The position numbers and the translations under genes were made by a program. DNA of 64,000 bases from an uncultured Mucilaginibacter sp. (GTDB taxonomy: Bacteria > Bacteroidota > Bacteroidia > Sphingobacteriales > Sphingobacteriaceae), in assembly GCA_964277815.1 (NCBI GenBank), contig CAXYKR010000343.1, positions 1,611-65,610 on the forward strand. Reading direction: 5' to 3'. Below the pieces are notes generated by a model, which saw nothing but the letters and a program-made list of their open reading frames with translations, had not been told where the DNA came from and did no database searches. Numbering within the stretch: position 1 is the stretch's first letter; each line of letters opens with the position of its first letter. This document shows, in pieces, positions 28,372-49,234 of this stretch.

Positions 28372-29492
28372 GTTAATGGAGAAAGGATATGACTCACGGC
28401 TTGTTTTTCCCAATTTTTGTAGTTGGCTGGGTCTCGTTCAAATTGTTGCCATGCTGTATGCATTAAACTGATCCAACTGGAGGGGTCGCCAACGTAATCA
28501 GAGAATTTGATCGGATTGGCTTCTGTTAACATATCATCCAGAGCCTGGGTTACGTCCGAAGCCCATTTGTTCTCATAAAAACCATAGTAATCTGCGGGTG
28601 CTGCCAAAGCTTTTGCGATGGTTTGCCATTCCTTTTCGAGTTTATCAGCTTCCTGGTGCAAGCCTAACTGTCGACACCTGCTTGCGATAAAAGTAATACG
28701 TAAATAGGTGACCGGATGACTGCTATTAAACAGGTCTTTCTCGGTACGGTAAAATGCGGAGCGTCCTTGCATACGTAGGTAAAAGCTAAAAGCACGGACA
28801 TAAGTTGAGCCACCGATCTCTACGCCTACAGCATCACAAAACAGTTCCTGAAGCCAGTCATACCAAGTTTCAACCATTTGGCGGGCTCTTTCCGTGTCGG
28901 CTTCGGAATCTGCGTCATTTTTGCGAACTGCTGGCATCAGGTAGCCGTTCAGCTTTTTCTGAAATTCCCGCACAAGGTCATCCATTTCAGCGCGGTGATG
29001 CTGGTATAAGTAATGACCGAGCTCGTGAAAGAATAACGGCATGTACAATAAACTTTGCTGAGCCGCTATCGGTAGATAATAGCTAACTGGAAAATCAACG
29101 GTCGGGTAGATCGCAAAGTCACCGTCTAATACCAAAAATGGTTTTTGTATAGTTTGCGAATGAGCACCATGGAGCCAGTGCAGCAGTTTCAAGGTGATGG
29201 CATCATTACGATGCGTTCTGTACAAACCTGGCAGGTATCTGCCATCCAGTACTCGGAATGTCTGTTGCAGGCTCGAAAACTCGTTGAAGATATCGACGTA
29301 GATACTTTCCTCCCCTAAATCTGTCAAGAATGCCAGGCGCTGTAAGGTAGTGCGAATATCCGTATAAAAAGAGGATAACCAAGCCTGGAAAAGTCCAAGT
29401 TCAGCGGGAACGCTTTTTGCAGACACAATACCAATAGTGGCATCAAGTTCTCGCACAAAGTCGTTGATGGAATCGGTTAATATTTTTTTCAT
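28368..29492 (-). CDS. zincin-like protein with a HELGH motif (possibly ImmA/IrrE M78-like)
   Basis: 374 aa. Single HExxH at LFFHELGHYLYQHH. The start codon shares 1 nt with the upstream stop (29492) and the stop overlaps the helicase ATG. The rest is unrecognised. Confidence 0.55.
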   Translation of the reverse strand: MKKILTDSINDFVRELDATIGIVSAKSVPAELGLFQAWLSSFYTDIRTTLQRLAFLTDLGEESIYVDIFNEFSSLQQTFRVLDGRYLPGLYRTHRNDAITLKLLHWLHGAHSQTIQKPFLVLDGDFAIYPTVDFPVSYYLPIAAQQSLLYMPLFFHELGHYLYQHHRAEMDDLVREFQKKLNGYLMPAVRKNDADSEADTERARQMVETWYDWLQELFCDAVGVEIGGSTYVRAFSFYLRMQGRSAFYRTEKDLFNSSHPVTYLRITFIASRCRQLGLHQEADKLEKEWQTIAKALAAPADYYGFYENKWASDVTQALDDMLTEANPIKFSDYVGDPSSWISLMHTAWQQFERDPANYKNWEKQAVSHILSPLT

Positions 29493-29941
29493 TAAAGTTC
29501 GCCAAGAAGTTCGCGGGTGTCAGAAGATAAGTGATCTTCAAGCAGCGCCCTAAATTCCGTTAATGAGTCAATTAATTTAGGCATGTCTTCGCTGCTTGGC
29601 GCGTCTATCATGAGCAACACCGTATTTGGTTCTTTTCTAAACAAGGCAGACTTATAGCGGCTGCTGCGACTTTTAGCTTCCGCAAATTTACGCACCAAAT
29701 TGCGGTACCGACCGTCTACGCCAGTCAAAGCGCTGCCGTCCTGATCGGCGGTACCGACCAGGGTGCTTAATTTGCTTAAAAAAGCTTTGACGATTTGCTT
29801 AGCTTTTTGGATATCTTCTATAGGCTGCTGATCGTTGATGCCTTTTTGGGCAAGTTTCAAATGAATTAATAATTTATTAAGCCTTTCCAGGATGCTTTGT
29901 CCTCGTTCAAAACTTTGAATGGCCAGTTGCTTCGTTTCCAT
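29492..29941 (-). CDS. hypothetical helical protein (149 aa)
   Basis: ATG 8 nt after the pAgo stop. No family recognised. Composition looks predominantly helical. Confidence 0.55.
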   Translation of the reverse strand: METKQLAIQSFERGQSILERLNKLLIHLKLAQKGINDQQPIEDIQKAKQIVKAFLSKLSTLVGTADQDGSALTGVDGRYRNLVRKFAEAKSRSSRYKSALFRKEPNTVLLMIDAPSSEDMPKLIDSLTEFRALLEDHLSSDTRELLGEL

Positions 29942-29949
29942 GATTGATA

Positions 29950-32259
29950 TTATTTGATGCGTTGAACTTCTTGACCCGCTTTATCTTGTAACTCGTCATC
30001 AGCCCGTTTAGCACAATAGGTGAGCCTTTGCGCTACAGACGGGCTGGCAAAGTTCATTTGGGTGGTGACGAATATGTCTTGTAATACGTTCTTTAAATTC
30101 GCCTGCGTGTATTTGTTTTTAATCAATAATGGCGACGCGGTGCCTTGATGCAAGGTTCCCTGTCCGGTGGCCGCCAGTACTACGGTACTGCTGTCAATCA
30201 TAAGCCAACTACCTTCCAGGGCATTATGGACCGTGTTGTTTTCCCGTTCCCATATCCTGACTTCTTTTAAAGTAGATTTACGGTATTCAACAAAATCGAA
30301 AGTTAAGTCGGTGGGGAACACGCCTTCGGCTTTAAGTTCCGCAATAGCTTCCTGTATAGCTTTAAACTCTTGATCGCAATCTTTACCATCCCGAAGCACT
30401 AACAATGATTTTAAACCATTATCCTTCACCGTGTCTTTATGCAGTTGAAAAAGCTCTTTAAAATGTTTTTTCAAAAAGACGGGATTTATCGTTTCGAGCG
30501 CCTTTGGGTCCGTTTTTCTTTTGACTTTTACATCCGAATTGGGAACATCCATCTGCTGACCATAAACCAACAATGATAGGGCCAAATGGGTGTGTCGGCT
30601 GCTAACGTCAATCATCAAGTGCATATCGTAATTCAGTTTGGTATCCGGTACAAAGAGCAGGCACCCTAATTGCTCCAGAACATCGTAAGTAATCAGATCA
30701 ACATAAGCGTTCCAGTTACGTTCACCGTTGGGATTCCGGCCGTCCTTGAAATTACTGTAACCGCGATATTTGCGTCGTAATTCCTGTTCGGTTAATCTTT
30801 TGACTTTCCAATCGGGTAAATTATGACGGATTAAATAATAGTTGGCAGATTCGTTATTATCAAAAGTAAAAACCACCATTCCGGCTTTGCGATAATTCTT
30901 TTTCAGGTCTATGGTAGCTTGTTCCTGACTCGCGAAGCCATCGACGACCGCCTGCACATTAATGCTGGTTAGTTTGGTGATTTTTTCGCAAACATCATTG
31001 GAAAGTTTTTCTTGTATTTTGGTGTCTATGCTTTGTGGGAACTGAAAGTGAATATCCCTGGTCATACCCGGCGGTACATAGAAACAGCCACATTCATCCA
31101 GCATTTTTTTTCGGTTGCGAAAATGCTCCTTGTAAAGCCGGGTGGTTTGTGCCACAGGTTTCGGCAATAAAAGGTTCCCCCCAAAGCGGAGGCCAGTCAT
31201 TTGCAACGTACCACAACGACCAGGACCAGGCGCAAAAAAACCATTTTTTATACCTGCAAAATGAACACCAAATGGTTTTTGGCCAAATTCAGCCCAAAGC
31301 TTTGTTAACAATTCTTCGCGCAGTGGCGGTTCGATTTTATCCACCTGACTCATCTCATGATCCAACGCTTCGTTAGTTACACGCAAATACAGCCGGTTGG
31401 CGGGTACCGGTACCGGTGCATTGTCTTCCGTTCCCGGAAAAGAAACCATGGCAACGCGATCATTGGCATTAACTCCAAAATTCGGGTAGCTTTTTTGGTA
31501 ATAGTCCCAAGTGTTTTGATAGGTGACCCCATTGATCTTTAACCTACGCGTCGTTGCTAAAGTAGTATCATCCAGATATTTGGTGAAATAACATTTTACA
31601 CGACCGTTCGGGCCATCGTAATATAAGGTGCCTTTGTTTTCACCGTAACGGCCCGAGAGGGTATAAAAGCGTTTTCTCAGATTCATCGAAAAGTAATCGT
31701 CGACGGACATACCTGTAAAGAAAGCAGTACCGACATTGATCGCCAAGCCCAAACCTTCTTTTTCCAGTATCACCTCTGCTACCTCATATTTTCGGTAAGC
31801 TTCAATATCGGCCACGTGTTCCGAACCATTCAAAAAATCGTTTTTAAGGAAGGGTACTTGGGCGTAAAATATGCGAGGGCTATCCAATCGCCAATAGTCC
31901 GGTTTAGCTGCAAATTTCAAAAGCAATGCTTTTTTGTAAAGATCGGCGAGTAATTGAGCTTGATTCGGATCACTCAGCGTCAGGGCAAAATTCCCTTCGA
32001 TAGGTTTTAATTCGATCAGCCAGTTATCCACTTCAAAGTCCTTACGCGGAATCCGGTCATGACATTCGATCAGGATACCTCTAACCTGGTTGTTTTGCAT
32101 ATAAGGCACAGCTGGAATACCAAAGCTTTTGCCAATATACGTACACAGCCGCTGGGCTTTTTCTTTAACTAATTCGTCGGTGTCCAGTTCGTAGCGGCGC
32201 ACAAATAGTTTAAGCTGCGTTCCGTGCAATACTAATTTGATGTTCGTTTCTTTACTCAT
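29950..32259 (-). CDS. long prokaryotic Argonaute (PIWI-domain protein), probably catalytically inactive
   Basis: Preferred start MSKETNIKL (cat at 32257-32259), 769 aa. PIWI-like blocks HLMIDVSS, ALET, LLVLRDGKD, QGTASPLLI, RLTYCAKRADD. Ala sits at the position of the 4th catalytic D/H when aligned to the HYADK / YAHL blocks. Confidence 0.7.
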   Translation of the reverse strand: MSKETNIKLVLHGTQLKLFVRRYELDTDELVKEKAQRLCTYIGKSFGIPAVPYMQNNQVRGILIECHDRIPRKDFEVDNWLIELKPIEGNFALTLSDPNQAQLLADLYKKALLLKFAAKPDYWRLDSPRIFYAQVPFLKNDFLNGSEHVADIEAYRKYEVAEVILEKEGLGLAINVGTAFFTGMSVDDYFSMNLRKRFYTLSGRYGENKGTLYYDGPNGRVKCYFTKYLDDTTLATTRRLKINGVTYQNTWDYYQKSYPNFGVNANDRVAMVSFPGTEDNAPVPVPANRLYLRVTNEALDHEMSQVDKIEPPLREELLTKLWAEFGQKPFGVHFAGIKNGFFAPGPGRCGTLQMTGLRFGGNLLLPKPVAQTTRLYKEHFRNRKKMLDECGCFYVPPGMTRDIHFQFPQSIDTKIQEKLSNDVCEKITKLTSINVQAVVDGFASQEQATIDLKKNYRKAGMVVFTFDNNESANYYLIRHNLPDWKVKRLTEQELRRKYRGYSNFKDGRNPNGERNWNAYVDLITYDVLEQLGCLLFVPDTKLNYDMHLMIDVSSRHTHLALSLLVYGQQMDVPNSDVKVKRKTDPKALETINPVFLKKHFKELFQLHKDTVKDNGLKSLLVLRDGKDCDQEFKAIQEAIAELKAEGVFPTDLTFDFVEYRKSTLKEVRIWERENNTVHNALEGSWLMIDSSTVVLAATGQGTLHQGTASPLLIKNKYTQANLKNVLQDIFVTTQMNFASPSVAQRLTYCAKRADDELQDKAGQEVQRIK

Positions 32260-32263
32260 CGAT

Positions 32264-33226
32264 TTACGCTTTAGTACATATTTCCAGGAATGCGCATTGT
32301 GCGCAAACCTTTGCTTGATTACAGGCGGTAAAGGCTTCCACCAGGCCATCAGCACCAAATTCTTCCATTTCTGTTAATAGCTCGATATCCTGTAAGATAC
32401 GGGCCTTTGCTCTTTTCAGTTCCTGGCCTGAAAAAAGTAAAGGCTCTAATATGCCATCCTGCAAAAACGCCTTATACAACCTGATCGAAGCTAAGGGTAT
32501 CTCCATTTGCTCGTGTGCCCATAAGGCGTAAGTCAACAATTGCAAACTACTCTCTTCCGAGTCATTTTGGCCGGTCTTCCAGTCCGCGATCACCCAACCC
32601 TCAGCATCCGGGAACATTAAGTCGATCGCACCATCAATCATGGCGCCCTCGTAATTAAGTAAAATCTTCTTCTCGATCAGGCTTTCCAACCGCAAGGCCC
32701 CTTCGCGTAGTTTAGCAAATTCGCAGCTCAGATAAAACTGCTCCAAGCTTAGCCGCATTTTATCCCGCAGATTATTGCGCAGCAGTTCCGTTTCAACAGT
32801 GCCATAAAATAACTCCTGGATGATCGCCGGTGCTCGGTATTCATATTCCCTTATAGCACCGGCAACAACTTCAGTTGAATGCTTGAAAGCATCGTCCAAT
32901 AATTTATTGGCAAAACTGATCATATGCGGGAGCGTCCAAACGACCTCTTTTTTAGCATTATTGAAGTAGGCACTGATCACCCGGTGAACAACTTCTCCAG
33001 CCACCAATACACCGGTCGATAAGTGTTTTAAGAACTGTATCCGGTCTTTGTGCAATTCTACATCCGCTTTGCGTTTACTGCCGCCAAAATATTGGTAATA
33101 TCCCATCCGCGGGCAAGTGCCAAAAGTATTCAAGCGTGAAAACGACCAACGCAACTTAGTCACTTTCACGACGGCTTTACCCGTGGCCGCTACTATTGAA
33201 TTACCAAAAAGATCGGTTTGTTCCAT
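32264..33226 (-). CDS. Cas4/RecB-like PD-(D/E)xK nuclease with a 4-Cys cluster
   Basis: FGTCPRMGYY (N-terminal Cys), IDGAIDLMF, VIADWKTG (D-x-K), QLLTYALW (QxxxY), C-terminal CNQAKVCAQCAFLEIC. Start at MEQTDLF (33226), or at the alternative ATG 33271. Confidence 0.75.
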   Translation of the reverse strand: MEQTDLFGNSIVAATGKAVVKVTKLRWSFSRLNTFGTCPRMGYYQYFGGSKRKADVELHKDRIQFLKHLSTGVLVAGEVVHRVISAYFNNAKKEVVWTLPHMISFANKLLDDAFKHSTEVVAGAIREYEYRAPAIIQELFYGTVETELLRNNLRDKMRLSLEQFYLSCEFAKLREGALRLESLIEKKILLNYEGAMIDGAIDLMFPDAEGWVIADWKTGQNDSEESSLQLLTYALWAHEQMEIPLASIRLYKAFLQDGILEPLLFSGQELKRAKARILQDIELLTEMEEFGADGLVEAFTACNQAKVCAQCAFLEICTKA

Positions 33227-33231
33227 CTTTA

Positions 33232-33573
33232 TTACCTCAATCGTTTTAAGTTCGTCATTAAACGATCCCATTCATGATCAGTCAGCCGCATATTAGCGAC
33301 CTCATTCATAAATTTGATCGCAGATGGACTGGATGCAATGGCACCACTCATTTCTCCCGTGATCTTTCCTGACTTGGAGAGCAAAACCTCGGTTGAAACC
33401 CCTAATACATCGCAAATCTTCTGGATGGTTTCCGCAGCTGGCGGTGCCATCCGGTCATTCTCGACTTTGCTGATATAAGAAAAATCAATACCAACCTGAT
33501 CAGCCAAATCTCTTTGGCTGATCCCCTTTTCGCGCCTGATAGCTTTTAATGTTTGTCCAAAAGTCTGATCCAT
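33232..33573 (-). CDS. XRE-family HTH regulator heading the pAgo operon
   Basis: MDQTFGQTLKAIRREKGISQRDLADQVGIDFSYISKVENDRMAPP. The track start 33612 is TTG. The ATG at 33573 gives a typical XRE N-terminus. Confidence 0.75.
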   Translation of the reverse strand: MDQTFGQTLKAIRREKGISQRDLADQVGIDFSYISKVENDRMAPPAAETIQKICDVLGVSTEVLLSKSGKITGEMSGAIASSPSAIKFMNEVANMRLTDHEWDRLMTNLKRLR

Positions 33574-33576
33574 ATA

Positions 33577-33607
33577 CAAATATAAGAATGTTGAGTTGAA
33601 TCTCAAC
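33577..33607 (-). promoter_or_regulatory. -7 promoter box plus inverted-repeat operator candidate for the pAgo operon
   Basis: Minus-strand TATATTTG (plus caaatata, 33577-33584) is a perfect TAnnTTTG only 4 nt from the ATG. IR gttgag-ttgaat-ctcaac lies at 33590-33607. Confidence 0.4.
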
Positions 33608-33773
33608 ACCAACTTTGGAAAATTATTTCAATAAATTTTATGGTAAAATATTTCAAAGAATTGCTAATTGCTTTCAAGGTCAGCGGTTTAAAGAGGTGAA
33701 TGAATTAGAGTCAAAACTTATAAGCTGAATAATATTTACTATAATTGAACACATAAACCTTATTTAATTAACT

Positions 33774-34895
33774 ATGGAAGAGCTTATTGCAAGTATCGCA
33801 ACAACGCTGAAAGATTACCGAGAAGATGAAGATAACACTTCAGTTCAAGTAAGCGAAGATCACATTACGGAATGGATAGCGCAATTTGAAGAAGAACTAC
33901 AAGTTCCTATTCTGACGGAGTTGAACAATATCTTCAAAAAACGATACTGTTCTAAGAAGAATTTGCGGCGATTTTTAGAATTACTCATTGAGGCCCTTAC
34001 TAAAGATTCTGGTTTGTCTTCCGAGGTAGATTTTTTAAAAAATGCTCAATTTCTAAGCCTGCAAGGACATGGGAAAAGTCAAACTATCATTCTTGAAATA
34101 CTGAAGGAAGTAATTTTTGATAAATATGATTTTTCATTTGACAAATGTGGTGCCTCATCACGTAAATATTCGATTTATATAGATGACGTACTTTGTTCGG
34201 GGCTTACCTTAATTTCAAATATCCAAGAATGGTCAAAATCTGAATTTGAAAATGGCAAAACAAATAAGCAGGCTGTGGAAGACGGATCAACAAAACTTTT
34301 CCTGAATTATATTTTTGTACATGAAAAGAACTTCGATAAGAAATTATATGAGATGGAAAAAAGAATTTCAGCCAAATTTTCCGCAAAAATCAAATCCTAT
34401 CATATGCATGAGATTCAGAATACGCTGATACCAACTTCAAAAGTTGATCTTATATTTCCTAACAGTGTGGAACAACCTGAGAATGTCGAGCAGTACCGGG
34501 CGGAAATAATAGAAACGGTTGATGCTTACAGTAAAGAGAAAGGTTATAAAACTAGCGCCGAAGAATTTTTTCGTCCAAATAAATTGCCGAAAGACGAAAA
34601 ATTCTTTACCAGTCCTGAGAATAGAAAGCTCGTCGAGGATGCTTTTTTGCAAAAGGGAATAGAGATACTTGGAAAGGCAAATGTTAACAATAAAAACATG
34701 CGGGCATTGGGTTATTCAATGCCATCGGTAAAAAGCTTCGGTTTCGGAGCGCTTTGTTTTACCTGGCGGAATGTGCCGAACAATACTCCGCTTGTATTTT
34801 GGTACGCTGGTGGTGGTTTTACGCCGTTATTTAAAGTGTCAAGGGGAAATAATTCAGCGTTTAATTTTACATTTGATTTTAGTGCGGAAGAATAG
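33774..34895 (+). CDS. phosphoribosyltransferase (PRTase)-like protein
   Basis: 373 aa. RKYSIYIDDVLCSGLTLISNI matches the PRPP-binding loop of type I PRTases (hydrophobic run-DD-hh-x-SG-x-T). The N- and C-terminal regions are unrecognised. Confidence 0.6.
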   Translation: MEELIASIATTLKDYREDEDNTSVQVSEDHITEWIAQFEEELQVPILTELNNIFKKRYCSKKNLRRFLELLIEALTKDSGLSSEVDFLKNAQFLSLQGHGKSQTIILEILKEVIFDKYDFSFDKCGASSRKYSIYIDDVLCSGLTLISNIQEWSKSEFENGKTNKQAVEDGSTKLFLNYIFVHEKNFDKKLYEMEKRISAKFSAKIKSYHMHEIQNTLIPTSKVDLIFPNSVEQPENVEQYRAEIIETVDAYSKEKGYKTSAEEFFRPNKLPKDEKFFTSPENRKLVEDAFLQKGIEILGKANVNNKNMRALGYSMPSVKSFGFGALCFTWRNVPNNTPLVFWYAGGGFTPLFKVSRGNNSAFNFTFDFSAEE

Positions 34896-34907
34896 TATGC
34901 TCAAGTG

Positions 34908-35693
34908 ATGGTGCCTACAAAAAAATACGAAAGTAAAATTTACAAAGCGTCGGAATGCTGTGTTTTCAGGAAGACGAAGGAAGGTTATGGCGCGCTTTCT
35001 AATATGGCGGCGGGCTTTCCATTGCGTATTAATGGAATCTCTGTAAAATCCACGGAGGCATTGTACCAGGTATGTCGATTTCCACATATGCCGGAAGTTC
35101 AGGAAAGGATACTATATGAAAAGAGTCCAATGACGGCAAAAATGGTGGGGAAACCTTTCCGGGAAATGACCAGGCCAGATTGGGAGGAAGAAAGGGTAAA
35201 AATTATGCGGTGGTGCCTTCGTGTCAAACTCGCTCAAAATTTTTGGTCTTTTGGGAAAGTACTGGAATGTACATTTAATAAGCAAATCGTTGAGGAAAGT
35301 AGTAAGGACCCTTTTTGGGGTGCTATACCTGACAAATATGAAAAGGACTGCCTAAAAGGCGTGAATGCTCTTGGAAGATTACTGATGGAACTGCGGCAGA
35401 CCTATAATGAAAAGCGTTATCTTGCTGATCTTTTTTACATTGAACCATTAAAAATACCTGATTTTAAGTTGTTGGGGAGCGAAATTAGTGTGGTTGATGA
35501 ACGTGCAAATTTTGTGAGTTATATCCAACACTCTCTTGGAATAAACAGCCCAACGCTGCTAAACGAACAGAAATCCGAAGTTGAGATTACAAAATCTTCG
35601 ACGACAACACCAGCCAAGCCGCAAAAGAAAAGCGGACTTACGAAAACGGCACGTAGCAAATCCAACGGTGAACAGAGTAGTTTATCATTATAA
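34908..35693 (+). CDS. NADAR (YbiA/DUF1768) family protein with a C-terminal extension
   Basis: ATG at 34908 (the track start 34905 is GTG). Blocks GALSNMAAGFPLRINGISVKSTEALYQVCRF, WEEERVKIMRWCLRVKLAQN, DPFWGA, GVNALGRLLMELR. An extra tail of about 90 aa follows. Confidence 0.75.
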   Translation: MVPTKKYESKIYKASECCVFRKTKEGYGALSNMAAGFPLRINGISVKSTEALYQVCRFPHMPEVQERILYEKSPMTAKMVGKPFREMTRPDWEEERVKIMRWCLRVKLAQNFWSFGKVLECTFNKQIVEESSKDPFWGAIPDKYEKDCLKGVNALGRLLMELRQTYNEKRYLADLFYIEPLKIPDFKLLGSEISVVDERANFVSYIQHSLGINSPTLLNEQKSEVEITKSSTTTPAKPQKKSGLTKTARSKSNGEQSSLSL

Positions 35694-36139
35694 GTTATTT
35701 ATCCACCCACTGAACATAGAAAAAATGGGTATACCGCCGATCTTAAAACTTATGTAGAATTTTGTCGCATTTTTTCTAAGATCAGTCCTTAGTTTTCTTT
35801 TAAAGTAAGCTATTCGCAATAATACAAAAATAGGCAATAGGTCAATAAACGTTTACTATATACTATCAATTAGAGTAGCATATCATCTGCTTTGGATAGA
35901 TAGTACGGATTGCTTATTTAATAGACATTATTACTGCCCAGATTACAATCTCAATAATAGATAACTATTTATTATCTGTGCAAATTGACTAGGAACTAAC
36001 GTCTTCCAACTGCGATGCTGATGTCCAGTGAAGAACCGATCAGCCAAATAAGAGGCTACTTTTTCATTAAGCAAATTAACAAAACGTCTTGGGCGGAAGG
36101 CATATTAACTCCCATACTGTCGTGACTCTCATTGCGAAT

Positions 36140-36379
36140 TCTGCAATTTTTCTTCACTTCATTTGTGCTTTTGTGGAGTTTACTTTGAGAGAGCCGCAGC
36201 ATCTTTTTGATCTCGAAAATTTTCAGTCAGTGATGGCCCGGCGGGCTGGATTATTCTTTGAGCAGCTTCTTAATATCAACAATAAGCTGCTGCTTAAATC
36301 TATTAAGTCTTGAACCGTGATAAATTGATCACGGTTCACTTAGGAAAGTCGTGTTCGATTTCACTCCGATTTGCGATAG
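36140..36379 (-). pseudogene. degenerate copy of the excisionase-like HTH gene 25856..26185
   Basis: About 200 nt align by eye at roughly 75-80 percent to the 5' part of the intact gene. ATG is mutated to ATC (36375-36377). There is a 1-nt deletion (CCTAAGTGAAC vs CCTAAAGTAAAC) and in-frame stops. The upstream promoter segment is also duplicated. Confidence 0.6.
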
Positions 36380-36424
36380 TTAAAAATTTAGCAACAGCAA
36401 ATGTAAAAAAGGGAAGAAACAAAA

Positions 36425-36453
36425 ATATCACGCCTCATGGACGAGGTAGGGTA
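36425..36453 (-). promoter_or_regulatory. conserved ICE motif, copy C (upstream of the HTH pseudogene)
   Basis: atatcacgcctcatggacgaggtagggta. It is preceded, as in copy B, by aaaatttagcaacagcaaatgt. Confidence 0.45.
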
Positions 36454-36538
36454 TTATATATATAATTTAAAAAATTAACAATGCGACTCGGCAAATAAGC
36501 CGTCACTCGCGAAAATATGAGCTTGCATTTATTGATGT

Positions 36539-39500
36539 TTGCTTATATTACTCCAATTAAACTTTATTCACTTGAAACTTATAAATAATCAGGAGGTTAG
36601 GCTCTTCGACGAAATTGAAAAATACTTAAAAGCTGGCTCAGAGGTATTTGTTAGTGTAGCCTATTTCAGCCTCAACGCAATTTTTGAGCTATCTGAGCAG
36701 TTAACTAACGCCTCCAAAATCAATATATTAATTGACACTGATCCCCACCAAGATTTAAGATTCGCTTATGACCAAAGTGAGTGGAGCCGGTATCTTGATT
36801 TAAAAGGTAAGTTTAAAGCTGAAAGTGCCTTTGCCTTAGTTAAAGATAAATGCGATATACGCTATGCAAACATGGGTGGGCAAAAGTTCTTTTTAGTGAA
36901 AAATGGCTCTAATACCCATTGTTTTGCCATTGCACCACATGATTTAAATCTTACAAGCTTCGGTCTTATTCCATCTTCTAATCCTGTCATTACTACGTCT
37001 TTTGAAGATATTGGGGATCAGTACTTAAAATTATTTCAGCAGTTTTGGAGCAATAGTACAAAAGATGTAAAAGAAAGCATTCTTGCTATTATTAAAAAAG
37101 CTTGTTCGGAACACAAGCCTGAAGATATTTATAAATTTAATTTATATCACATCTTTCACAATGCAACAATTAACGAAGCATCAGAGCAACGAATTAAAAA
37201 GATTGGCTTTAAAGATACCTTGATATGGGGTATGTTGTTCAATTTCCAACAAGATGCAGTACTGGGCGCTATTGATAAAATTGAAACTTATGGAGGTTGT
37301 ATAATAGCAGATAGTGTAGGATTGGGAAAAACTTTCGAAGCCCTCGCGGTAATGAAATACTACCAGATGCGAAATGATCGGGTACTAGTGCTTTGCCCCA
37401 AAAAGCTTAGGGATAATTGGATAATATATGCCCAAAATGATGTTAGAAATATATTAGCTAAGGATCGATTCAATTTTGATGTTTTAAATCACACAGATCT
37501 TTCCCGCGAAAACGGTTTTTCTGGTGATATCAATCTCGAAACCATAAATTGGGGTAATTATGACCTCATTGTTATTGATGAATCGCACAACTTCCGTAAC
37601 AATCCCCCTAAGCGTGATGGAATAACCCGCTATCAAAGGTTAATGACTGATATCATAAAATCAGGAGTAAAGACTAAAGTACTAATGCTTTCAGCAACTC
37701 CGGTGAATACGAGGATGAATGACATCAAAAACCAGATAGCATTTATAACTGAACAAAATGATAATGCGCTGGCATCCTTTGGCATAAATAGTATTGATAT
37801 CACCTTAAGAAAAGCACAGCAACGTTTTAATACCTGGCTAAAAGGAAGAACAGGAGACGATTTTAACCGCGATTCATTAATCGAAAGCTTGGACGGTTCG
37901 TATTTTAGGATACTCGATCTCTTAACGATAGCCCGATCACGCAAGCATATTCAAAAATATTACGATGTTAAAGATATTGGTAAATTTCCTGAGCGATTAG
38001 CACCCGATACAAAAACCTCTGATTTTGATATTAATGGTAAGTTCCCGGCTATAGATATCGTTAATAATGAACTAAATGCCCTTAATTTAAAATTCTACTC
38101 CCCGTTATCTTACGTTAGAGCTGATAGAAGAGAATCCTACGAGGCTAAATATGACATTACCACATCAACTGGTAGCATATTTCGACAGGTAGAACGGGAA
38201 AATAGCTTAATACACTTAATGAGGGTGAATTTATTGAAGCGTCTTGAAAGCTCAATTCACTCGTTTCATTTGACTTTACAATCCTTATTACGCCAGATCG
38301 ATTCTCTGTTGGAAAAGGTAGATCATGCGCAAAGTAATTCCATGTTCGATGCTAACCTCGACATTAATGATGTTGATTTTGACGACGAATTATTAGAGGA
38401 TTTGTTAGTTGGTGGCAAGGTTAAAGTGTTATTACAGGATATTGACCTAATTCGGTGCCGTGAAGATTTAACGGATGATCGAAAACGTATAATGGATCTT
38501 ATATCAATGACAAAAGTTATCGATGTAACCCGTGACGCCAAATTAAACGACCTTAAAAAATTAATTGAAAATAAAATTGCGAACCCCATAAATCCGGGCA
38601 ATAACAAGATCATTATATTCTCAGCATTTGCTGATACAATTGTGTACTTGTACGATAATTTACACCAATGGATAAAAGATGATCTAAACTTATATTCGGC
38701 GCAGGTAACCGGCGGCGATAGTAATAAAACCAATTTAGCCAATTGCCGAATCGATCTTAGCTCAATACTCACAAACTTTTCTCCTCTATCAAAAAAAAGA
38801 GATCAGATATTTCCGGATAGTAAAACTGATATTGATATTCTTTTTTGTACAGATTGCATATCAGAAGGTCAAAACCTACAGGATTGTGATTACCTGGTAA
38901 ATTATGATATTCACTGGAACCCGGTTCGGATTATTCAGCGATTCGGTCGTATAGACCGTATTGGTTCAAAAAATCAAAAAATAAAGCTGGTCAACTTCTT
39001 TCCTAACCTTGATCTGGATAACTATATTGACTTGATAGGCCGTGTTCAGGGCCGAATGCAAATATTAGATGTATCGGCTACCGGCGATGACAATATCATA
39101 GACGAAACTTCTGGACAAAGGCAAGACTTAGAGTATAGAAGGCGACAGCTTAAACAACTTCAGGACAAAGTTTTGGATTTAGAGGATATTGAAGGCGGGA
39201 TTAGCATAACCGATCTAACTTTCAATGATTTTAAAATTGACGCGGATAGGCTGACGATTGAAGAAAAAGAAGCATTTGACTTGATGCCCAAAAGCATTTA
39301 TGCTATAACCAGCTCCAATTTGATTGATGCACCTAAAGGAGTTATTTTCTGCTTTAAAAATTCAAATGGTGAAATTGAAGACGCTTATACGAATAACGCG
39401 ATATATCCTTACCATTTATGTTATATCAACATTGATGGAGGTGTTTTCATACCTGGAAGTAATCCTAAAAAGTGCCTGGACTATTTTAAAAAGTTATGCC

Positions 39501-39730
39501 TTGGCCATAACGAGGTGTTGAACAATCTGATAACAGAATTTGGGAAAGAAACCAAAGGTGGAAAAATGATGGACACCTACGTTAAACTCTTACAAATTGC
39601 CGTAACTAACTTAAATGGCGTAGAGGAAGAACTTGGTTTAGACACTTTAGCATTACCTGGCGGAACAAGAATTTTCAAAAATGATATTGGGAACAATTAC
39701 GAATTGATTTCCTTTTTAATCATTAAATAA
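36539..39730 (+). CDS. SNF2-family helicase with an N-terminal PLD-like domain
   Basis: DSVGLGKTFEALAV (motif I), LIVIDESHNFRN (motif II), SEGQNLQDCDYLVNYDIHWNPVRIIQRFGRIDRIGS (motifs V-VI). The N-terminal ~170 aa (EVFVSVAYFSLNAIFEL...GGQKFFLV) resemble a PLD-like domain lacking the HKD His. The track start is TTG, so the true start is uncertain (another TTG at 36572). Confidence 0.8.
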   Translation: MLILLQLNFIHLKLINNQEVRLFDEIEKYLKAGSEVFVSVAYFSLNAIFELSEQLTNASKINILIDTDPHQDLRFAYDQSEWSRYLDLKGKFKAESAFALVKDKCDIRYANMGGQKFFLVKNGSNTHCFAIAPHDLNLTSFGLIPSSNPVITTSFEDIGDQYLKLFQQFWSNSTKDVKESILAIIKKACSEHKPEDIYKFNLYHIFHNATINEASEQRIKKIGFKDTLIWGMLFNFQQDAVLGAIDKIETYGGCIIADSVGLGKTFEALAVMKYYQMRNDRVLVLCPKKLRDNWIIYAQNDVRNILAKDRFNFDVLNHTDLSRENGFSGDINLETINWGNYDLIVIDESHNFRNNPPKRDGITRYQRLMTDIIKSGVKTKVLMLSATPVNTRMNDIKNQIAFITEQNDNALASFGINSIDITLRKAQQRFNTWLKGRTGDDFNRDSLIESLDGSYFRILDLLTIARSRKHIQKYYDVKDIGKFPERLAPDTKTSDFDINGKFPAIDIVNNELNALNLKFYSPLSYVRADRRESYEAKYDITTSTGSIFRQVERENSLIHLMRVNLLKRLESSIHSFHLTLQSLLRQIDSLLEKVDHAQSNSMFDANLDINDVDFDDELLEDLLVGGKVKVLLQDIDLIRCREDLTDDRKRIMDLISMTKVIDVTRDAKLNDLKKLIENKIANPINPGNNKIIIFSAFADTIVYLYDNLHQWIKDDLNLYSAQVTGGDSNKTNLANCRIDLSSILTNFSPLSKKRDQIFPDSKTDIDILFCTDCISEGQNLQDCDYLVNYDIHWNPVRIIQRFGRIDRIGSKNQKIKLVNFFPNLDLDNYIDLIGRVQGRMQILDVSATGDDNIIDETSGQRQDLEYRRRQLKQLQDKVLDLEDIEGGISITDLTFNDFKIDADRLTIEEKEAFDLMPKSIYAITSSNLIDAPKGVIFCFKNSNGEIEDAYTNNAIYPYHLCYINIDGGVFIPGSNPKKCLDYFKKLCLGHNEVLNNLITEFGKETKGGKMMDTYVKLLQIAVTNLNGVEEELGLDTLALPGGTRIFKNDIGNNYELISFLIIK

Positions 39731-39731
39731 T

Positions 39732-40499
39732 ATGGATGGCTTAAATTCCATATTACAATTGCCAGACCGGTGTATTATCAATAAAAAGATAACCAAAGCC
39801 TTTTTTAAACGAAATTTTGATCTCACTTCAGCAGATAAAATATTGATTGATGATAGGCATATCATCAGTGAAATTAACTGGATAGCAAGTGTTAGCCCAA
39901 CTACCTCGAATATCGTTACATATAAAGATGGGCAGTATTTATTTGAGGAAATGCAGATTATCAGCGTGTTGATTAACATGGAGTTCGAACGTAATTACGA
40001 AAAGATTGCTGAATTAATACAAAAGTACATTCCTTATCCAATTTTACTCATCATGTATGATAGCGATAGGTTTGTGCTTAACACCTGTGATAAAAAGGTT
40101 AATCAAAACGATAGCAGCAGGCGAACTATTGAAAAAAGATATTTTAGCAATGCAATTATTAAAGGTAATGCAAGTGAAATTCAAAACAGCTTTTTAGAAA
40201 GCCTTAAATTTGCCAACTTAGATAAAACTAATTTGCAAACATATTATCAGGCCTACACGCAACGTATCATATCTTTGCAGGTCTCTAATTTAAACGGAAC
40301 ATTTCAACCACGTACGCAAAGTCGCACACAGCAGGATATGTACCGTTTGGAAAAAATAGAGCAACTAAATAGTGAAATAAACAGCCTGGAAATTCAGGCT
40401 AAAAAAGAAACGCAGTTGAACCAGCGCGTGCAGCTTAACTTAACAATCAATCAAAAACGGCAGGAAATAAGAAATCTAACCGCACTACTATCCTTATAA
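39732..40499 (+). CDS. DUF4391-like protein
   Basis: 255 aa. ATG 1 nt after the SNF2 stop. The IQKYIPYPILLIMY block and the position between SNF2 helicase and methyltransferase are typical of DUF4391. Call from memory. Confidence 0.55.
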   Translation: MDGLNSILQLPDRCIINKKITKAFFKRNFDLTSADKILIDDRHIISEINWIASVSPTTSNIVTYKDGQYLFEEMQIISVLINMEFERNYEKIAELIQKYIPYPILLIMYDSDRFVLNTCDKKVNQNDSSRRTIEKRYFSNAIIKGNASEIQNSFLESLKFANLDKTNLQTYYQAYTQRIISLQVSNLNGTFQPRTQSRTQQDMYRLEKIEQLNSEINSLEIQAKKETQLNQRVQLNLTINQKRQEIRNLTALLSL

Positions 40500-40502
40500 T
40501 AA

Positions 40503-42446
40503 ATGGAAAAAATTACAGCAGGACACCCACTTAGCCAAAGCGAAGACATTGTAAAACAGAACATCGATACATTAAAGGCCCTTTTCCCAACTATAGTTAA
40601 GGAAGGGAAAATTGATATTGGTGAACTAAAGGCGCTATTGGGTGAAGATGTTGAAGAAAACGAGGAATACTACCGGTTTACCTGGGCCGGCAAAAGCCAG
40701 GCACGGCAGGAAGCAAATAAACCAAGCACCGGCACGTTACGCCCTAACAAAGCTGATAGTAAAGATTGGGACATCACACAAAACATTTTTATTGAAGGTG
40801 ATAATTTAGAAGTGCTTAAGCTTTTGCAAAAAAGTTACGCTGGGGCTATAAAAATGATTTACATCGATCCGCCCTATAACACAGGTAAAGACTTTGTATA
40901 TAAAGATAATTATAAAGATAATCTGAGTAATTATTTAGAGCTTACTGGCCAGATTGATGAAGAGGGCAAGAAACTCGGGACAAATATTGAAAGTGATGGC
41001 CGTTTTCATAGTAATTGGCTAAATATGATGTACCCGCGTTTGAAGCTTGCGCGAAATTTATTGAAAGATGATGGTGTTCTTTTTATTAGTATTGATGATA
41101 ATGAAGTACATAATCTTCGTAAAATATGCGACGAAATATATGGTGAAGATAATTTTATTGCTCAGTTGGCAGTACAATTAAATCCAAGAGGACGGAACTT
41201 AGATCAGTTTGTGGCGAAGACTCACGAGTCAATATTGATCATTTGTAAAAATTATTCATTGAACACAACCATGTTCGGTGTAGAAAAAGAGGGCAGAATG
41301 GTCGATGACTACAATCGAACAGACAACAGAGGAGCGCATAGATTACTTGGACTTAGAAATAGAAATCAGGCGTTCAACCCAATCACACGTCCAACCCTTT
41401 ATTATCCCTTGTACATAAATCCTGATAATGGCGAAGTATCTATATCCAAAAGTGACGGATATAGCGAAGAGGTTTGGCCAGATGCGCCGGACGGCATCAA
41501 AACATGTTGGACTTGGAGTAAGGACAAGGTTATTTCGGATAACAAACTTTTGATAGCAGAAAAAACATCTGACGGATGGCGGGTATTTCGAAAGGATTAT
41601 TTAGTTGGTGATGATGGTGAAACCGCTAAAACGTTAATCAAATCTGTATGGACTGAAAAGGAGATTAGTAATGACTATGGACGTGCAGCTATAAAAAATC
41701 TTTTTGGCAAATCCTTAATGGATTTCCCGAAATCACCGGAGCTTCTAAAAATTATTATAAACACTTCGGTAAAATCTAATGACATTGTTTTAGATTTTTT
41801 TGCAGGCTCTGCTACTACTGCCGACGCTTTAATGCAACTTAACGCAAACGATGGCGGTAACAGAAGATGCATTTCAATTCAACTGCCAGAGCCAATTACC
41901 GAAGACAATGAGGCCTTCAGTGAGGGCTATAAGAATATTGCGGATTTATCAAAAGAAAGAATTCGCCGTGCAGGTATAAGAATTAAAACTGAGGTAAAGG
42001 ATCAATTATTTGATCTTAAAAAGGATTTGGATTTAGGATTTAAGGCATTTAGGTTAGACACCTCGAATATCAATGCGTGGGAAGGTAATATAGAAAATTT
42101 TGAGCAAAACCTGTTTAATTCTGCCAATAACATCAAAGAAGGCCGTAGTGAGGAAGATGTACTTTACGAGATACTACTAAAAAGTGGTTTGGATTTAAGT
42201 GAGAGAATTGAGGAAAAAGAAATTGGCGATAAAAAGGTGTACAACATTGGTTTGGGTGCCTTATTCATTTGCCTTTCAGATAACATTAGCACGGCAGTTG
42301 CCGAAGGCATAGGGCAATGGAAAGTGGAGCTTAACCCAGCAACCTGCACCGTAATTTTTAAAGACGCAGGTTTGACAGACGTAGAGAAAGCTAACTCTAT
42401 TCAAATTTTAAAACGCTACGGTATAACCGAAGTAAATTCCATTTAA
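40503..42446 (+). CDS. mod: site-specific DNA methyltransferase (type III Mod-like, N6A/N4C)
   Basis: IYIDPPYNTGKDFVY (motif IV, DPPY) precedes VLDFFAGSATTADA (motif I). This is beta-class order, as in type III Mod. 647 aa. Confidence 0.85.
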   Translation: MEKITAGHPLSQSEDIVKQNIDTLKALFPTIVKEGKIDIGELKALLGEDVEENEEYYRFTWAGKSQARQEANKPSTGTLRPNKADSKDWDITQNIFIEGDNLEVLKLLQKSYAGAIKMIYIDPPYNTGKDFVYKDNYKDNLSNYLELTGQIDEEGKKLGTNIESDGRFHSNWLNMMYPRLKLARNLLKDDGVLFISIDDNEVHNLRKICDEIYGEDNFIAQLAVQLNPRGRNLDQFVAKTHESILIICKNYSLNTTMFGVEKEGRMVDDYNRTDNRGAHRLLGLRNRNQAFNPITRPTLYYPLYINPDNGEVSISKSDGYSEEVWPDAPDGIKTCWTWSKDKVISDNKLLIAEKTSDGWRVFRKDYLVGDDGETAKTLIKSVWTEKEISNDYGRAAIKNLFGKSLMDFPKSPELLKIIINTSVKSNDIVLDFFAGSATTADALMQLNANDGGNRRCISIQLPEPITEDNEAFSEGYKNIADLSKERIRRAGIRIKTEVKDQLFDLKKDLDLGFKAFRLDTSNINAWEGNIENFEQNLFNSANNIKEGRSEEDVLYEILLKSGLDLSERIEEKEIGDKKVYNIGLGALFICLSDNISTAVAEGIGQWKVELNPATCTVIFKDAGLTDVEKANSIQILKRYGITEVNSI

Positions 42447-42462
42447 CCGCAGGGCTCAATCT

Positions 42463-45400: not shown

Positions 45401-45501
45401 ACTTTCAAGAGCTGGCATCCAAAACAGGAAGTAATATTGCATTGGAACATGTATCAAACATTGATGATTTTGTAAACTTTGCGATGGCGAAAACCATATA
45501 A
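42463..45501 (+). CDS. res: type III restriction enzyme Res-like helicase-nuclease
   Basis: METGTGKTYVYL (Walker A), VIIDEPQ (motif II), ALKEGWDNPNVF. C-terminal YNPDWAVLF...LFFIVESKG is a PD-ExK motif. 1012 aa. Confidence 0.85.
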   Translation: MHIKFESGLDYQHDAIHAIVDIFKGQETCTSNFTVYSPAYLATQKNLEYNQIGYANKLQLTEGQILDNVQKIQLRNGLKPSVKQDVEIKHLDFSIEMETGTGKTYVYLRTIMEMNRQYGFTKFIIVVPSIPIKEGVYKSLQITESHFKEHYNNTPYKYFIYDSSRLNDVRDFATNDQLQIMVINIDAFSKSFEDEKNEKKTANIIHRYNDKLGYKPLQLIQDTRPIVIIDEPQTTLSTPIRKKSVKGLNPMAVLRYSATHKEKVNQMYKLDAIDAYSKQLVKQIEVASVKVDGAASNGAYVKLISVQNKKGIIAKVEVDVLKDGARKRKIVEIKKPQDLLEITHIQEYDGFQVNDIYTETGNEYIEFINGEVLRLGETLGTIDDTLIKRMMIRKTIQEHLDKELRLNPKGIKVLSLFFIDAVKHYRIYDEDGNAQNGDYVSIFEEEYKKLIKLPKYNSLFAGINDLETEANAVHNGYFSIDRKAKTSNKKEKFEYYKDTNGTVAADEDTYNLIMRDKELLLSFDSKLRFIFSHSALKEGWDNPNVFQICTLKEAGASEVRRRQEIGRGLRLAVNQDGERVKGFEINTLTVMASESYENFVENLQKEIEKETGIVFGLLQPHSFNNITIAMNGTDPVFFGQENSASLFDYLMLKGYINNQGKAQDLLKEDLRTGNLALPEDLEDHVKAQITDLLKQTAGRLEVKRNEDKQTVKVNKQVLLSPEFKELWDKIKYKTTYAVNFNSTKLVQACQEQISNRVIVSRGKLIYEKASLSINKGGINIVNEPETEYGIINQEVKVLPDIVTYLQNETQLTRKSIVEILKGCTNLKYFKLNPQKFIEGCIEIINEQMRLHIVDGIVYTKTGNHDVYSQELFENEQLTGYLKSNMLASTRSPYEYVIYDSGVESELAKEFERNKNVRVYAKLPGWFKIDTPLGTYNPDWAVLFELEGVEKLFFIVESKGSMGYEFLRPAEKGKIDCGKKHFQELASKTGSNIALEHVSNIDDFVNFAMAKTI

Positions 45502-45654: not shown

Positions 45655-46221
45655 GTGATATTTTCAATAGCCTTATTATCAATGTATTCGCGGTTAATTA
45701 AATACTTGATTTCTATTTCAAGCTTTTTTCCCATCTTTTTGGTGTTTTGGCTGGTTAACGTTCTTAGCCATTTCAAAGAATTACATTTTTATCTCAACAT
45801 TAATGCCAGCGCCGAGTTCAAAACCGGGCTCCGCATATTTTTTACGCAGCATGGCTTGCTTTTCATTTTTCTTGGTCTGATGCTGGTCTGCCGCTGGATA
45901 CTACGTTTCGCCCAAACACATTTGAGTCCGCGTTCGATCGAAATCAAGGCAATCAAACCAGCGGACGTCAACTTTGTATCCGCTATCATCAGTTATGTTG
46001 CGCCTTTTTTTAAATTTTTCCTGGAGACGAGTCATGACTATATTTATGCAGGCGGCTATTTTTTATTAGCTGTAATTATTGCTTCCGTTACCTCAAGGGC
46101 TTATCATTATAACCTTACATTCAGCATATTTTTCCGTTACCGGCACTTTGAGGTTAGTACCACCAAGGATGTTACTTATTTAGTCCTCTCAAAAAAACAA
46201 TTGGTAAATAAAAATAATTGA
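45655..46221 (+). CDS. four-TM membrane protein (Kiwa KwaA-like, tentative)
   Basis: 188 aa with about four hydrophobic helices: ISISSFFPIFLVFWLVNVL, GLLFIFLGLMLVCRWIL, VNFVSAIISYVAPFF, YAGGYFLLAVIIASV. No soluble domain recognised. Confidence 0.5.
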   Translation: MIFSIALLSMYSRLIKYLISISSFFPIFLVFWLVNVLSHFKELHFYLNINASAEFKTGLRIFFTQHGLLFIFLGLMLVCRWILRFAQTHLSPRSIEIKAIKPADVNFVSAIISYVAPFFKFFLETSHDYIYAGGYFLLAVIIASVTSRAYHYNLTFSIFFRYRHFEVSTTKDVTYLVLSKKQLVNKNN

Positions 46222-46278
46222 CAACGATCGTTCATCTGACGGATTATATGCTGATAGAAACTCAAACAACCTAAAGCC

Positions 46279-49067: not shown

Positions 49068-49234
49068 ATCAAAAAAAAATCAATATAATAAGTTGAGCGG
49101 TTGTTGTCAACCTTCATTTTGATAAAAGCTAATTCAAAGAGGTTAATAAGTTAACTATTCACTGTGAAATCAATAGCGAATAGTTAGCTTTAAAATTCCT
49201 ACTATAAAACTGCAACCAGACTTTAAAAATTTTA

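Follow-up and report, generated by a model that had tools for sequence, protein, structure and literature searches.

What does a phosphoribosyltransferase (PRTase) do when an N-glycosidase of the NADAR family is encoded directly behind it, amid defence genes? The question is raised by two adjacent genes at positions 33,774 to 35,693 of a 64,000-nucleotide (nt) stretch of DNA from an uncultured Mucilaginibacter sp. (contig CAXYKR010000343.1, positions 1,611 to 65,610 of the forward strand), in the following called the window. A first-pass annotation of the window had described them as a PRTase-like protein paired with a NADAR/YbiA-type protein and as a candidate conflict or phage-defence module belonging to no named system. 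Judged from both protein sequences, the pair is almost certainly a divergent, Bacteroidota-type member of the anti-phage system DS-32, and the two genes are referred to here as DS-32A and DS-32B. As a system the pair is already known; the mechanism of DS-32 is unpublished.

Identity of the gene pair

Both proteins were compared with the curated NCBIfam equivalog models of DS-32. DS-32A scores 285.3 bits against NF053875 (DS32_1_antiphage, phosphoribosyltransferase-like anti-phage protein; cut-off 250 bits), with residues 4–354 aligned to profile positions 1–321 of 322. With 264.8 bits, DS-32B exceeds the cut-off of 240 bits of NF053876 (DS32_2_antiphage, NADAR family anti-phage protein), and its residues 11–194 cover profile positions 1–181 of 181. 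Using BLASTP, DS-32A and DS-32B align over nearly their full length with the validated Escherichia coli proteins WP_000097610.1 (E 4e-22) and WP_032260665.1 (E 5e-51), respectively. The assignment to DS-32 is made because both proteins exceed the equivalog cut-offs and align nearly full length with the validated pair; gene A, gene B and their A-then-B adjacency on the same strand are all found in the window.

DS-32 stems from the predictions of DefensePredictor, and its action against phages was validated in E. coli (bioRxiv 10.1101/2025.01.08.631726; Science 2026, PMC13092281), where it is described as PRTase plus NADAR. According to the supplement of that work, the validated cloned locus NZ_QOXQ01000027.1 48629–50261 encodes WP_000097610.1 (343 amino acids, aa) followed by WP_032260665.1 (203 aa) with an 11-nt overlap (PMC13092281). 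Similar to this locus, the window contains the same two families in the same order, on the same strand and with tight spacing, a 9-nt gap taking the place of the overlap. The PRPP (phosphoribosyl pyrophosphate) loop, the RN.PNN.P block and the NADAR catalytic residues discussed below are common to both, and the NADAR C-terminal peptides are similar (GQSLSLF in E. coli, EQSSLSL in the window). In contrast, the window proteins share only 25 % (A) and 43 % (B) identity with their E. coli counterparts, the window NADAR is 59 aa longer owing to a disordered tail, and the host is Bacteroidota-like, phage protection having been demonstrated for the E. coli representative only.

The first-pass view of the pair as a phage-defence module is thereby borne out, as it is an equivalog-level member of a system that protected E. 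coli from phages. That it is no named system is wrong: DS-32 was validated in 2025–26 and NCBI curates hidden Markov models for both genes. As a discovery the pair adds little, being catalogued, validated in E. coli and covered by these models.

The two proteins and their active sites

Residues 31–354 of DS-32A match Pfam PF24390 (PRTase-CE, 6e-44), a family name for which no literature match was found. The PRPP loop had been taken for the only recognisable feature of the protein; instead, the whole protein matches both PF24390 and NF053875. The loop itself (IYIDDVLCSGLT, residues 134–145) is present as first noted. It fits the type I pattern of a hydrophobic run, two acidic residues and then x-x-x-[ST]-G-x-T. 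In a comparison of 79 PRTase-CE sequences, E. coli DS-32A among them, Y135, D137 and D138 are found in all, G143 in 78 and T145 in 76, and about 35 further positions are conserved to at least 95 %. A second conserved block close to the C-terminus has the pattern G323-x-G325...R332-N333-x-x-N336-N337-x-P339, which reads WRNVPNNTP in the window. G323, G325, R332 and P339 occur in 79/79 sequences; T330, N336 and N337 in 78/79. This block matches 'G...PNNxP', a motif that has been reported to be specific to PRTases associated with retrons. For the equivalent PRPP-loop motif, mutation abolishes defence or toxicity in Retron-Eco11 and ShosT, where the motif is essential.

The AlphaFold2 model of DS-32A has a predicted local distance difference test score (pLDDT) of 84.9 and a predicted TM-score of 0.84. 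In a Foldseek search of the PDB, the 11 best and most of the top 20 matches are uracil, adenine, xanthine-guanine and orotate PRTases (UPRT, APRT, XGPRT, OPRT) with probabilities of 0.9–1.0. The matches are weak (E 4.5e-3 to 0.1, TM ≤0.44, 85–225 aligned columns), which points towards a very diverged PRTase fold amid family-specific helical additions. At the sequence level no PRTase and nothing relevant was found in the PDB at E ≤ 1. The single PADLOC match of DS-32A is the retron PRTase_III-A (1.2e-8, residues 4–354); in accordance with this placement, HHblits sets E. coli DS-32A beside 'Retron_III PRTase'.

DS-32B matches Pfam PF08719 (NADAR) over residues 21–165 with 84.4 bits (cut-off 35.1; 1.4e-23) and aligns with E. 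coli YbiA (E 8e-14). Its model has a pLDDT of 81.7, is confident over residues 10–212 and superimposes with a TM-score of 0.72 on YbiA (2b3w) and of 0.63 on the ADP-ribose-bound Phytophthora NADAR (8bau). E51, Y54, Q55, K79, E130, D135 and W138 do not vary among the 76 NADAR partners compared; position 58 holds R or K. E51, R58, D135 and E130 align with YbiA E48, K55, D130 and E125 and correspond to the Glu of the xE..YQ helix, the basic residue (Lys/Arg) seven positions on, the Asp of D..WG and the late-strand Glu (not Asp or His), respectively. Mutagenesis of the E. coli C7 NADAR identified E88, K95 (for which Arg retains in vitro activity) and D171 as catalytic, and the DS-32B equivalents of these residues align as well. 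A Glu in a late strand defines the YbiA subfamily; from the alignment and the model strand 126–130 this Glu is probably E130. By domain, predicted fold and predicted catalytic residues, DS-32B is a NADAR of the YbiA subfamily. The C-terminal tail noted at first sight is likewise present: residues 216–261 (261-aa form) have a pLDDT of about 32 and are predicted to be disordered. The active sites of both DS-32 proteins are under strict purifying selection.

Could the pair be ordinary metabolism, that is, a salvage PRTase beside a YbiA-like detoxifier of riboflavin intermediates, having no defence role? DS-32B scores 71.6 bits on TIGR02464 (riboflavin-intermediate N-glycosidase), just under the cut-off of 73.7, so that equivalog status is missed, and several database copies carry automatic names such as 'ribA/ribD-fused uncharacterized protein' or 'N-glycosidase YbiA'. 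Against these hints, the E. coli orthologues protected against phage. DS-32A is no conventional salvage enzyme: in Pfam and NCBIfam it has no match to Pribosyltran or to a salvage equivalog at E ≤ 0.1, and its predicted structure resembles type I PRTases only weakly. Further, the pair lies in a defence island near an integrase, elsewhere it adjoins other defence, toxin-antitoxin (TA) or integrase genes, and no conserved riboflavin or salvage genes are found nearby. The DS-32A family is also small (at E ≤ 1e-3, 1.84 billion representatives contain 1,073 clusters at 50 % identity) and patchy across phyla, unlike housekeeping genes. A purely metabolic role is effectively refuted.

Linkage and co-diversification

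Linkage was assessed in 84 loci encoding DS-32A relatives of 31–84 % identity, of which 1 came from a genome, 3 from look-ups of encoding contigs and 80 from metagenomes. The scan of genome contigs, which used a single protein as query rather than an alignment, yielded the one genome locus. A NADAR open reading frame (ORF) follows downstream on the same strand in 79 of the 84 loci, and in four of the five exceptions the contig ends within 108 bp of the PRTase gene. Thus NADAR is present in 79 of 80 testable loci, and a single locus (L041) has room for it without encoding it. The gap between the two genes is below 100 nt in 76 of the 79 linked loci. In the reverse direction, a PRTase-CE gene lies immediately upstream of the NADAR homologue in 3/3 contigs, which were picked because their sizes matched none of the listed PRTase hits. 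The expected co-occurrence of the two families is therefore confirmed far beyond chance.

The same order of PRTase and NADAR is found on plasmids of Bacillus cereus, Methylobacterium aquaticum and Vibrio algicola, where the copies are 27–30 % identical and the annotation reads 'hypothetical protein then NADAR family protein'. Comparison of the flanking families revealed no conserved third gene across the loci. A scan of the viral contig collection returned no relatives and hence no sign of phage-borne DS-32. We also considered a fused PRTase-NADAR protein; the longer homologues include none, their extensions being domains of other kinds.

For 61 non-redundant loci the pairwise distances of the PRTases and of the NADARs correlate with a Mantel r of 0.876, and none of 2000 permutations was as high. 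Owing to this strong correlation we conclude that the two proteins are inherited and diversify as a unit. The DS-32 gene pair is a co-evolving functional unit with near-obligate linkage.

Terminal peptides and domain variants

In the NADARs of the window clade, a linker rich in Lys/Ser/Thr, not conserved and predicted to be disordered, connects the core to a conserved terminal peptide, GQATLPF being the commonest form of this peptide. A terminal Q-x-x-L-x-[LFIM] occurs in 77 of 112 non-redundant long-tailed homologues, where shuffled tails would give about 0.1, and 19 of the 36 long-tailed NADARs from the loci have it as well. Among short-form NADARs merely 1/34 ends in Q-x-x-L-x-[LF]. Since the sequences are related, the counts speak for selection on the peptide and not for its independent recurrence. 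Bacterial sliding-clamp-binding motifs include QLSLF and QLSLPL, which the NADAR terminal peptide appears to resemble.

A different ending is seen on the PRTase side. About ten PRTases of the window subclade end in DDDLPF, DDDLSF or NDDLFF; the window PRTase itself ends in FDFSAEE. DDDIPF and DDDLPF are conserved C-terminal tails of bacterial SSBs, proteins that bind single-stranded DNA; the literature also describes DDDLPF as a motif for degradation by ClpXP. In Adhaeribacter sp. BT258 (L002, 7391–8011) a leucine-rich repeat protein ending in DYNDDLPF is encoded between the PRTase-CE and NADAR genes, and the PRTase of this locus is without an SSB-tail-like end.

Several homologues carry additional domains. 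One PRTase-CE protein has a C-terminal HRDC nucleic-acid-binding domain and another an N-terminal FGE-sulfatase-like domain; in both cases NADAR still follows. In a third protein, fused to a nucleoside-2-deoxyribosyltransferase-like (NDT) domain by a weak Pfam match below the cut-off, the NADAR neighbour is absent. The positions of these fusion loci are listed in the table. Other PRTase-CE homologues carry a TPR domain. Many close homologues of DS-32A (470–490 aa; P0005, P0016, P0103) possess an extra N-terminal beta domain of about 110 aa with the consensus IIGTKW..TQ...NGYA.L.GQI...GTASNK.G..WTFKGELI, the window protein being the short form. In P0044 the N-terminal extension consists of a transmembrane and a coiled-coil part. 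Pfam contains no domain for the 110-aa extension, for the C-terminal extension of P0116 or for the ORF upstream of the PRTase in L041.

Tandem PRTase-CE paralogues followed by one NADAR were observed in L028 (5655–6764) and L066 (4812–5918) as well as in L049 and L072, with the PRPP loop and the RN.PNN.P block intact in both paralogues. The locus devoid of NADAR, L041 (53–1533), encodes an intact PRTase-CE protein with a family-less 130-aa ORF 5 nt upstream and a GmrSD-like (DUF262-type) gene downstream; the 130-aa ORF might be an alternative partner to NADAR. In the accessible portion of the DS-32 paper's text, linkage figures, co-diversification, terminal peptides, HRDC/FGE/NDT fusions and two-PRTase variants are not mentioned.

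Variable N-terminal additions to the PRTase, such as the FGE-sulfatase-like, TPR and 110-aa beta domains, are typical of sensor modules. They could indicate that the PRTase-like protein serves in sensing or regulation, binding PRPP or a nucleotide but not transferring it, and that NADAR is the effector, for example by deglycosylating nucleotides or by stripping an ADP-ribose or ribosyl modification made by the phage. Some type I PRTase-fold proteins are indeed regulators, as known in general and from the Retron-Eco11 study, and for none of the defence PRTases has an acceptor been found. Such a role is nevertheless hard to reconcile with the acidic pair and Gly of the PRPP loop and some 35 other polar residues being invariant across 25–84 % identity, or with the loss of defence or toxicity on PRPP-loop mutation in the related retron and ShosT systems. 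In addition, no NADAR has been shown to be toxic. We consider this explanation very improbable.

Proposed mechanism

Near-obligate pairing with a YbiA-type N-glycosidase is the sharpest available hint to the product of defence PRTases. It is made concrete by the invariant active sites, the co-diversification, the HRDC fusion, the terminal peptides and both the PRTase-PRTase-NADAR and the NADAR-less NDT variants. We tentatively propose, by analogy with characterised pairs, an antagonistic mechanism in which a toxic PRPP-dependent writer would be restrained by a NADAR eraser. DS-32A, as a highly diverged type I PRTase, would use PRPP to attach ribose-5-phosphate N-glycosidically to a target, most likely a nucleobase in DNA or RNA or a nucleotide, and the adduct would harm replication. 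DS-32B, a YbiA-type NADAR predicted to be catalytically competent, would hydrolyse this N-glycosidic bond and keep the host free of the modification for as long as infection does not upset the balance. The pair would then behave like DarT1-NADAR or YarT-YbiA, with a PRPP-dependent writer replacing the NAD-dependent one.

The chemistry of NADAR enzymes is in accordance with such a scheme. NADAR/YbiA enzymes hydrolyse N-glycosidic bonds to exocyclic amines; 5-phosphoribosylamino pyrimidines are the native substrates of YbiA, and ADP-ribose on guanine in DNA is removed by every NADAR tested. As YbiA acts on the former and NADARs on ADP-ribosyl-guanine, a phosphoribosyl-N adduct would be a natural NADAR substrate. 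NADAR/YbiA proteins are known as antitoxins to the transferase toxins DarT1 and YarT, and PRTase domains as toxic or essential effectors in retron III-A, ShosTA and Ophion. The writer/eraser idea is our best guess; it is chemically coherent, and the DS-32 authors hint at something alike: they find DS-32A to resemble DarT neither in structure nor in sequence and propose 'TA partner swapping' (PMC13092281). The HRDC fusion, the SSB-tail-like ends and the clamp-motif-like NADAR peptide suggest DNA or the replisome as substrate or trigger, so that the substrate or the infection signal may sit at replicating DNA, as these clade-specific appendages suggest. A phosphoribosylated base in DNA or RNA, if it exists, would be a new nucleic-acid modification and the PRPP-based counterpart of DarT/NADAR.

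The main rival fits the data about as well. Here the two enzymes would cooperate: the PRTase would load a small acceptor and NADAR would regenerate it, giving a futile cycle from PRPP and water to ribose-5-phosphate and pyrophosphate. The resulting infection-activated collapse of PRPP would halt nucleotide and NAD synthesis and starve the phage, with NADAR as a co-effector and not an antitoxin. Upon activation of the related Retron-Eco11 PRTase, PRPP was the only metabolite to change significantly, dropping by about 50 %. In ShosT the PRTase is fused to a second, hydrolytic domain, and mutants of the two active sites were tested by the authors to confirm that both domains act together in toxicity. 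The NDT-like fusion, the one fusion variant without a NADAR neighbour, looks as if a hydrolase in cis had replaced NADAR in trans; this argument is drawn from one locus. If defence needs both activities, the active sites of both enzymes should be strictly invariant, as they are, and YbiA-type NADARs do act on small phosphoribosylamino compounds. On the other hand, the HRDC domain and the SSB-like and clamp-binding-like tails are not obviously needed for depletion of a pool, the characterised two-gene NADAR/YbiA operons are all antagonistic toxin/antitoxin pairs, and a separate switch would be required to silence both enzymes before infection. Overall we regard the cooperative cycle as somewhat unlikely.

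Several observations also count against the antagonistic writer and eraser. An intact PRTase-CE gene occurs without NADAR in L041. In the modelled structure, the resemblance of DS-32A to type I PRTases is weak (best E 4.5e-3, TM ≤0.44). The Retron-Eco11 PRTase is non-toxic alone, and its activation is tied to PRPP depletion and not to a modified macromolecule. ShosT bound PRPP and none of the four common purines tested, and its acceptor was not found. The literature shows no DS-32A toxicity, DS-32B rescue or acceptor substrate; the accessible portion of the DS-32 paper gives no mechanism, and literature searches combining NADAR with PRPP and phosphoribosylation with anti-phage defence found no mechanistic study. 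Finally, the replisome-like peptides cannot be a universal mechanism, because they are restricted to clades, as the single ending among the short NADARs and the FDFSAEE end of the window PRTase illustrate. They might be degrons or sensor modules instead.

A more specific form of the writer/eraser proposal appears unlikely to us. DS-32 would write and erase a new phosphoribosylation of a base, for example at the exocyclic amine of guanine in single-stranded DNA, and replisome identity would provide the rule for self and non-self. The eraser of the window clade would be tethered to the sliding clamp by Q-x-x-L-x-[LF], and some writers to SSB or DNA by the DDDLPF tail or the HRDC domain. Host DNA at host replisomes would be kept clean, and phage DNA emerging from a foreign replisome would be modified and blocked.

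Locus layout and surroundings

The positions of the features are collected in Table 1. Reading of the ORF list and of the junction confirmed the coordinates, lengths and 9/12-nt spacing given in the first-pass annotation: the junction sequence is GAA GAA TAG tatgctcaa GTG ATG, which puts GTG 9 nt and ATG 12 nt behind the stop. Across 34893–34910 the two ORFs share a reading frame, being separated by TAG and 9 nt only, so that read-through would give a fusion protein. With a chance of 1 in 3, the shared frame is probably a coincidence.

The intergenic region upstream of DS-32A presumably carries the DS-32 promoter. A scan for sigma-70 promoters and terminators gave sites no more numerous than in shuffled sequences, Bacteroidota-type promoters being outside its model, and an Rfam search over 33000–36700 returned sub-threshold chance matches, none significant. 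The inverted repeat behind the NADAR stop may mark the operon end. Two palindromes were observed in addition: GGTGTTGAGATTCAACTCAACATT (33587–33610) is an inverted repeat at the 5' end of the gene for the helix-turn-helix (HTH) regulator and borders the DS-32 intergenic region, and a perfectly spaced 14-nt inverted repeat, TGAACCGTGATAAA/TTGATCACGGTTCA (36311–36338), lies within the 846-bp gap preceding the Snf2 gene. Both could be operator sites.

The DS-32 pair is transcribed divergently from a minus-strand operon (29950–33612) of HTH regulator, Cas4-like nuclease and prokaryotic Argonaute (pAgo), in agreement with the earlier description of divergent transcription from a pAgo operon within defence genes. 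Neighbouring genes of this operon overlap. The HTH gene overlaps the nuclease gene by 40 nt and is therefore assigned to the pAgo operon and not to DS-32. We considered the divergent HTH as a conserved third DS-32 gene and rejected this, as no flanking family recurs beyond closely related contigs. Directly downstream of pAgo (26404–29941, minus strand) lie a helicase, an M48-like peptidase and a family-less 149-aa ORF, which could be accessory genes of the pAgo system.

On the other side, the DS-32 genes are the first of a low-GC block of about 33–51 kb, with a G+C fraction of 0.36–0.39 against about 0.44 in the flanks. This block is crowded with defence genes: HKD-Snf2, DUF4391, type III restriction-modification, Kiwa, a GHKL ATPase and a tyrosine integrase. 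The four genes following DS-32 are a type III restriction-modification system with an accessory Snf2/DUF4391 pair. Because of its low G+C content and the bounding integrase, the stretch from DS-32 to Kiwa looks like an acquired island, with a composition distinct from that of the pAgo side.

Table 1. Positions of DS-32 features and neighbouring genes in the window; the last row refers to loci on other contigs.
Feature	Position	Strand	Remarks
DS-32A, PRTase-CE family phosphoribosyltransferase-like protein	33774..34895	+	373 aa, ATG start
PRPP-binding loop	34173..34208	+	IYIDDVLCSGLT; DS-32A residues 134–145
Family signature block	34740..34790	+	GFGALCFTWRNVPNNTP; DS-32A residues 323–339
DS-32B, YbiA-type NADAR N-glycosidase (predicted)	34905..35693	+	262 aa from GTG 34905; 261 aa from ATG 34908
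DS-32B C-terminal tail, Ser/Thr/Lys-rich, predicted disordered	35553..35690	+	ends EQSSLSL (35670–35690)
AT-rich intergenic region	33613..33773		between divergent HTH/pAgo operon and DS-32 operon; read directly
Inverted repeat	35709..35786		19-nt arms, 89 % complementary, 40-nt spacer; begins 16 nt past NADAR stop
HTH regulator	33232–33612	-	internal ATG likely true start, about 113 aa
Cas4-like PD-(D/E)XK nuclease	32264–33271	-	PADLOC Aga_Cas4-like_Nuc, 1.4e-16
pAgo	29950–32358	-	PADLOC pAgo_II, 5e-29; no Pfam match
M48-like peptidase	28368–29492	-	weak match
PIF1/RecD-like helicase with C-terminal HRDC domain	26404–28413	-	
HKD+Snf2 helicase, DUF4391, type III methyltransferase, type III restriction enzyme	36539–45501	+	HKD+Snf2: PADLOC C3a139, 3e-115; methyltransferase 1e-202; restriction enzyme E = 0
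Kiwa system	45655–47103	+	PADLOC KwaA 9e-21, KwaB 4.5e-88
GHKL-type ATPase (HATPase_c_3), then tyrosine integrase	47154–50455	-	integrase 49235–50455, Arm-DNA-binding domain
PRTase-CE fusion loci	L096 3501–5051 (P0328); L094 3377–4774 (P0250); L097 3501–5384 (P0336)		listed with NDT-like, HRDC and FGE-sulfatase-like domains, in this order

Comparison with known systems

DarT1-NADAR (DarTG1) and YarT-YbiA resemble DS-32 in being two-gene operons of a ribosyl-type transferase and a NADAR N-glycosidase, which in those pairs reverses an N-linked adduct. Similar to DS-32B, the partner of YarT is a NADAR of the YbiA subfamily. In contrast, DS-32A has a PRPP loop and not the NAD-binding ADP-ribosyltransferase (ART) fold of DarT1 and YarT, and two features of DarT1-linked (BC4488) NADARs, their Asp-type active site and their N-terminal extension, are missing from DS-32B. 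Neither neighbour of the window pair contains an ART domain according to Pfam and PADLOC, the partner of the NADAR being PRTase-CE. Since there is no ART, the pair is not a member of DarT1-NADAR or YarT-YbiA.

ShosTA and Ophion (OpnC) resemble DS-32 as defence systems with a PRTase domain; in them this domain binds PRPP and is the toxic or essential component. DS-32 differs from them in having no DprA-like ShosA, radical-SAM or PHP partner. Whereas in ShosT a hydrolase domain is fused to the PRTase, the hydrolase of DS-32 is a separate NADAR protein. With PADLOC, no ShosT or ShosA match was found at E ≤ 0.1, and the pair is not assigned to ShosTA.

A further likeness is offered by ybiA-ybiB of E. 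coli K-12, where the YbiA NADAR lies beside a DNA-binding protein with predicted phosphoribosyltransferase activity, in connection with the LexA-controlled dinG-ybiB operon. This is an independent adjacency of a NADAR and a PRTase-like protein at a DNA-damage-inducible operon. YbiB belongs to the TrpD2 (anthranilate-PRTase-like) fold, as distinct from that of type I PRTases, and is not known to act in phage defence.

Outside DS-32, the effectors of type III-A retrons such as Retron-Eco11 are the closest relatives of DS-32A. A cryptic retron was considered for the window and rejected, as the neighbours include no reverse transcriptase (RT) and Rfam gave no significant non-coding RNA in 33000–36700. 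The PNNxP signature is common to DS-32A and the retron PRTases, and so is a functionally important C-terminal peptide, reported on the retron side for Retron-Eco11. A difference lies in the partner: in DS-32, NADAR takes the place of the RT and its multicopy single-stranded DNA (msDNA).

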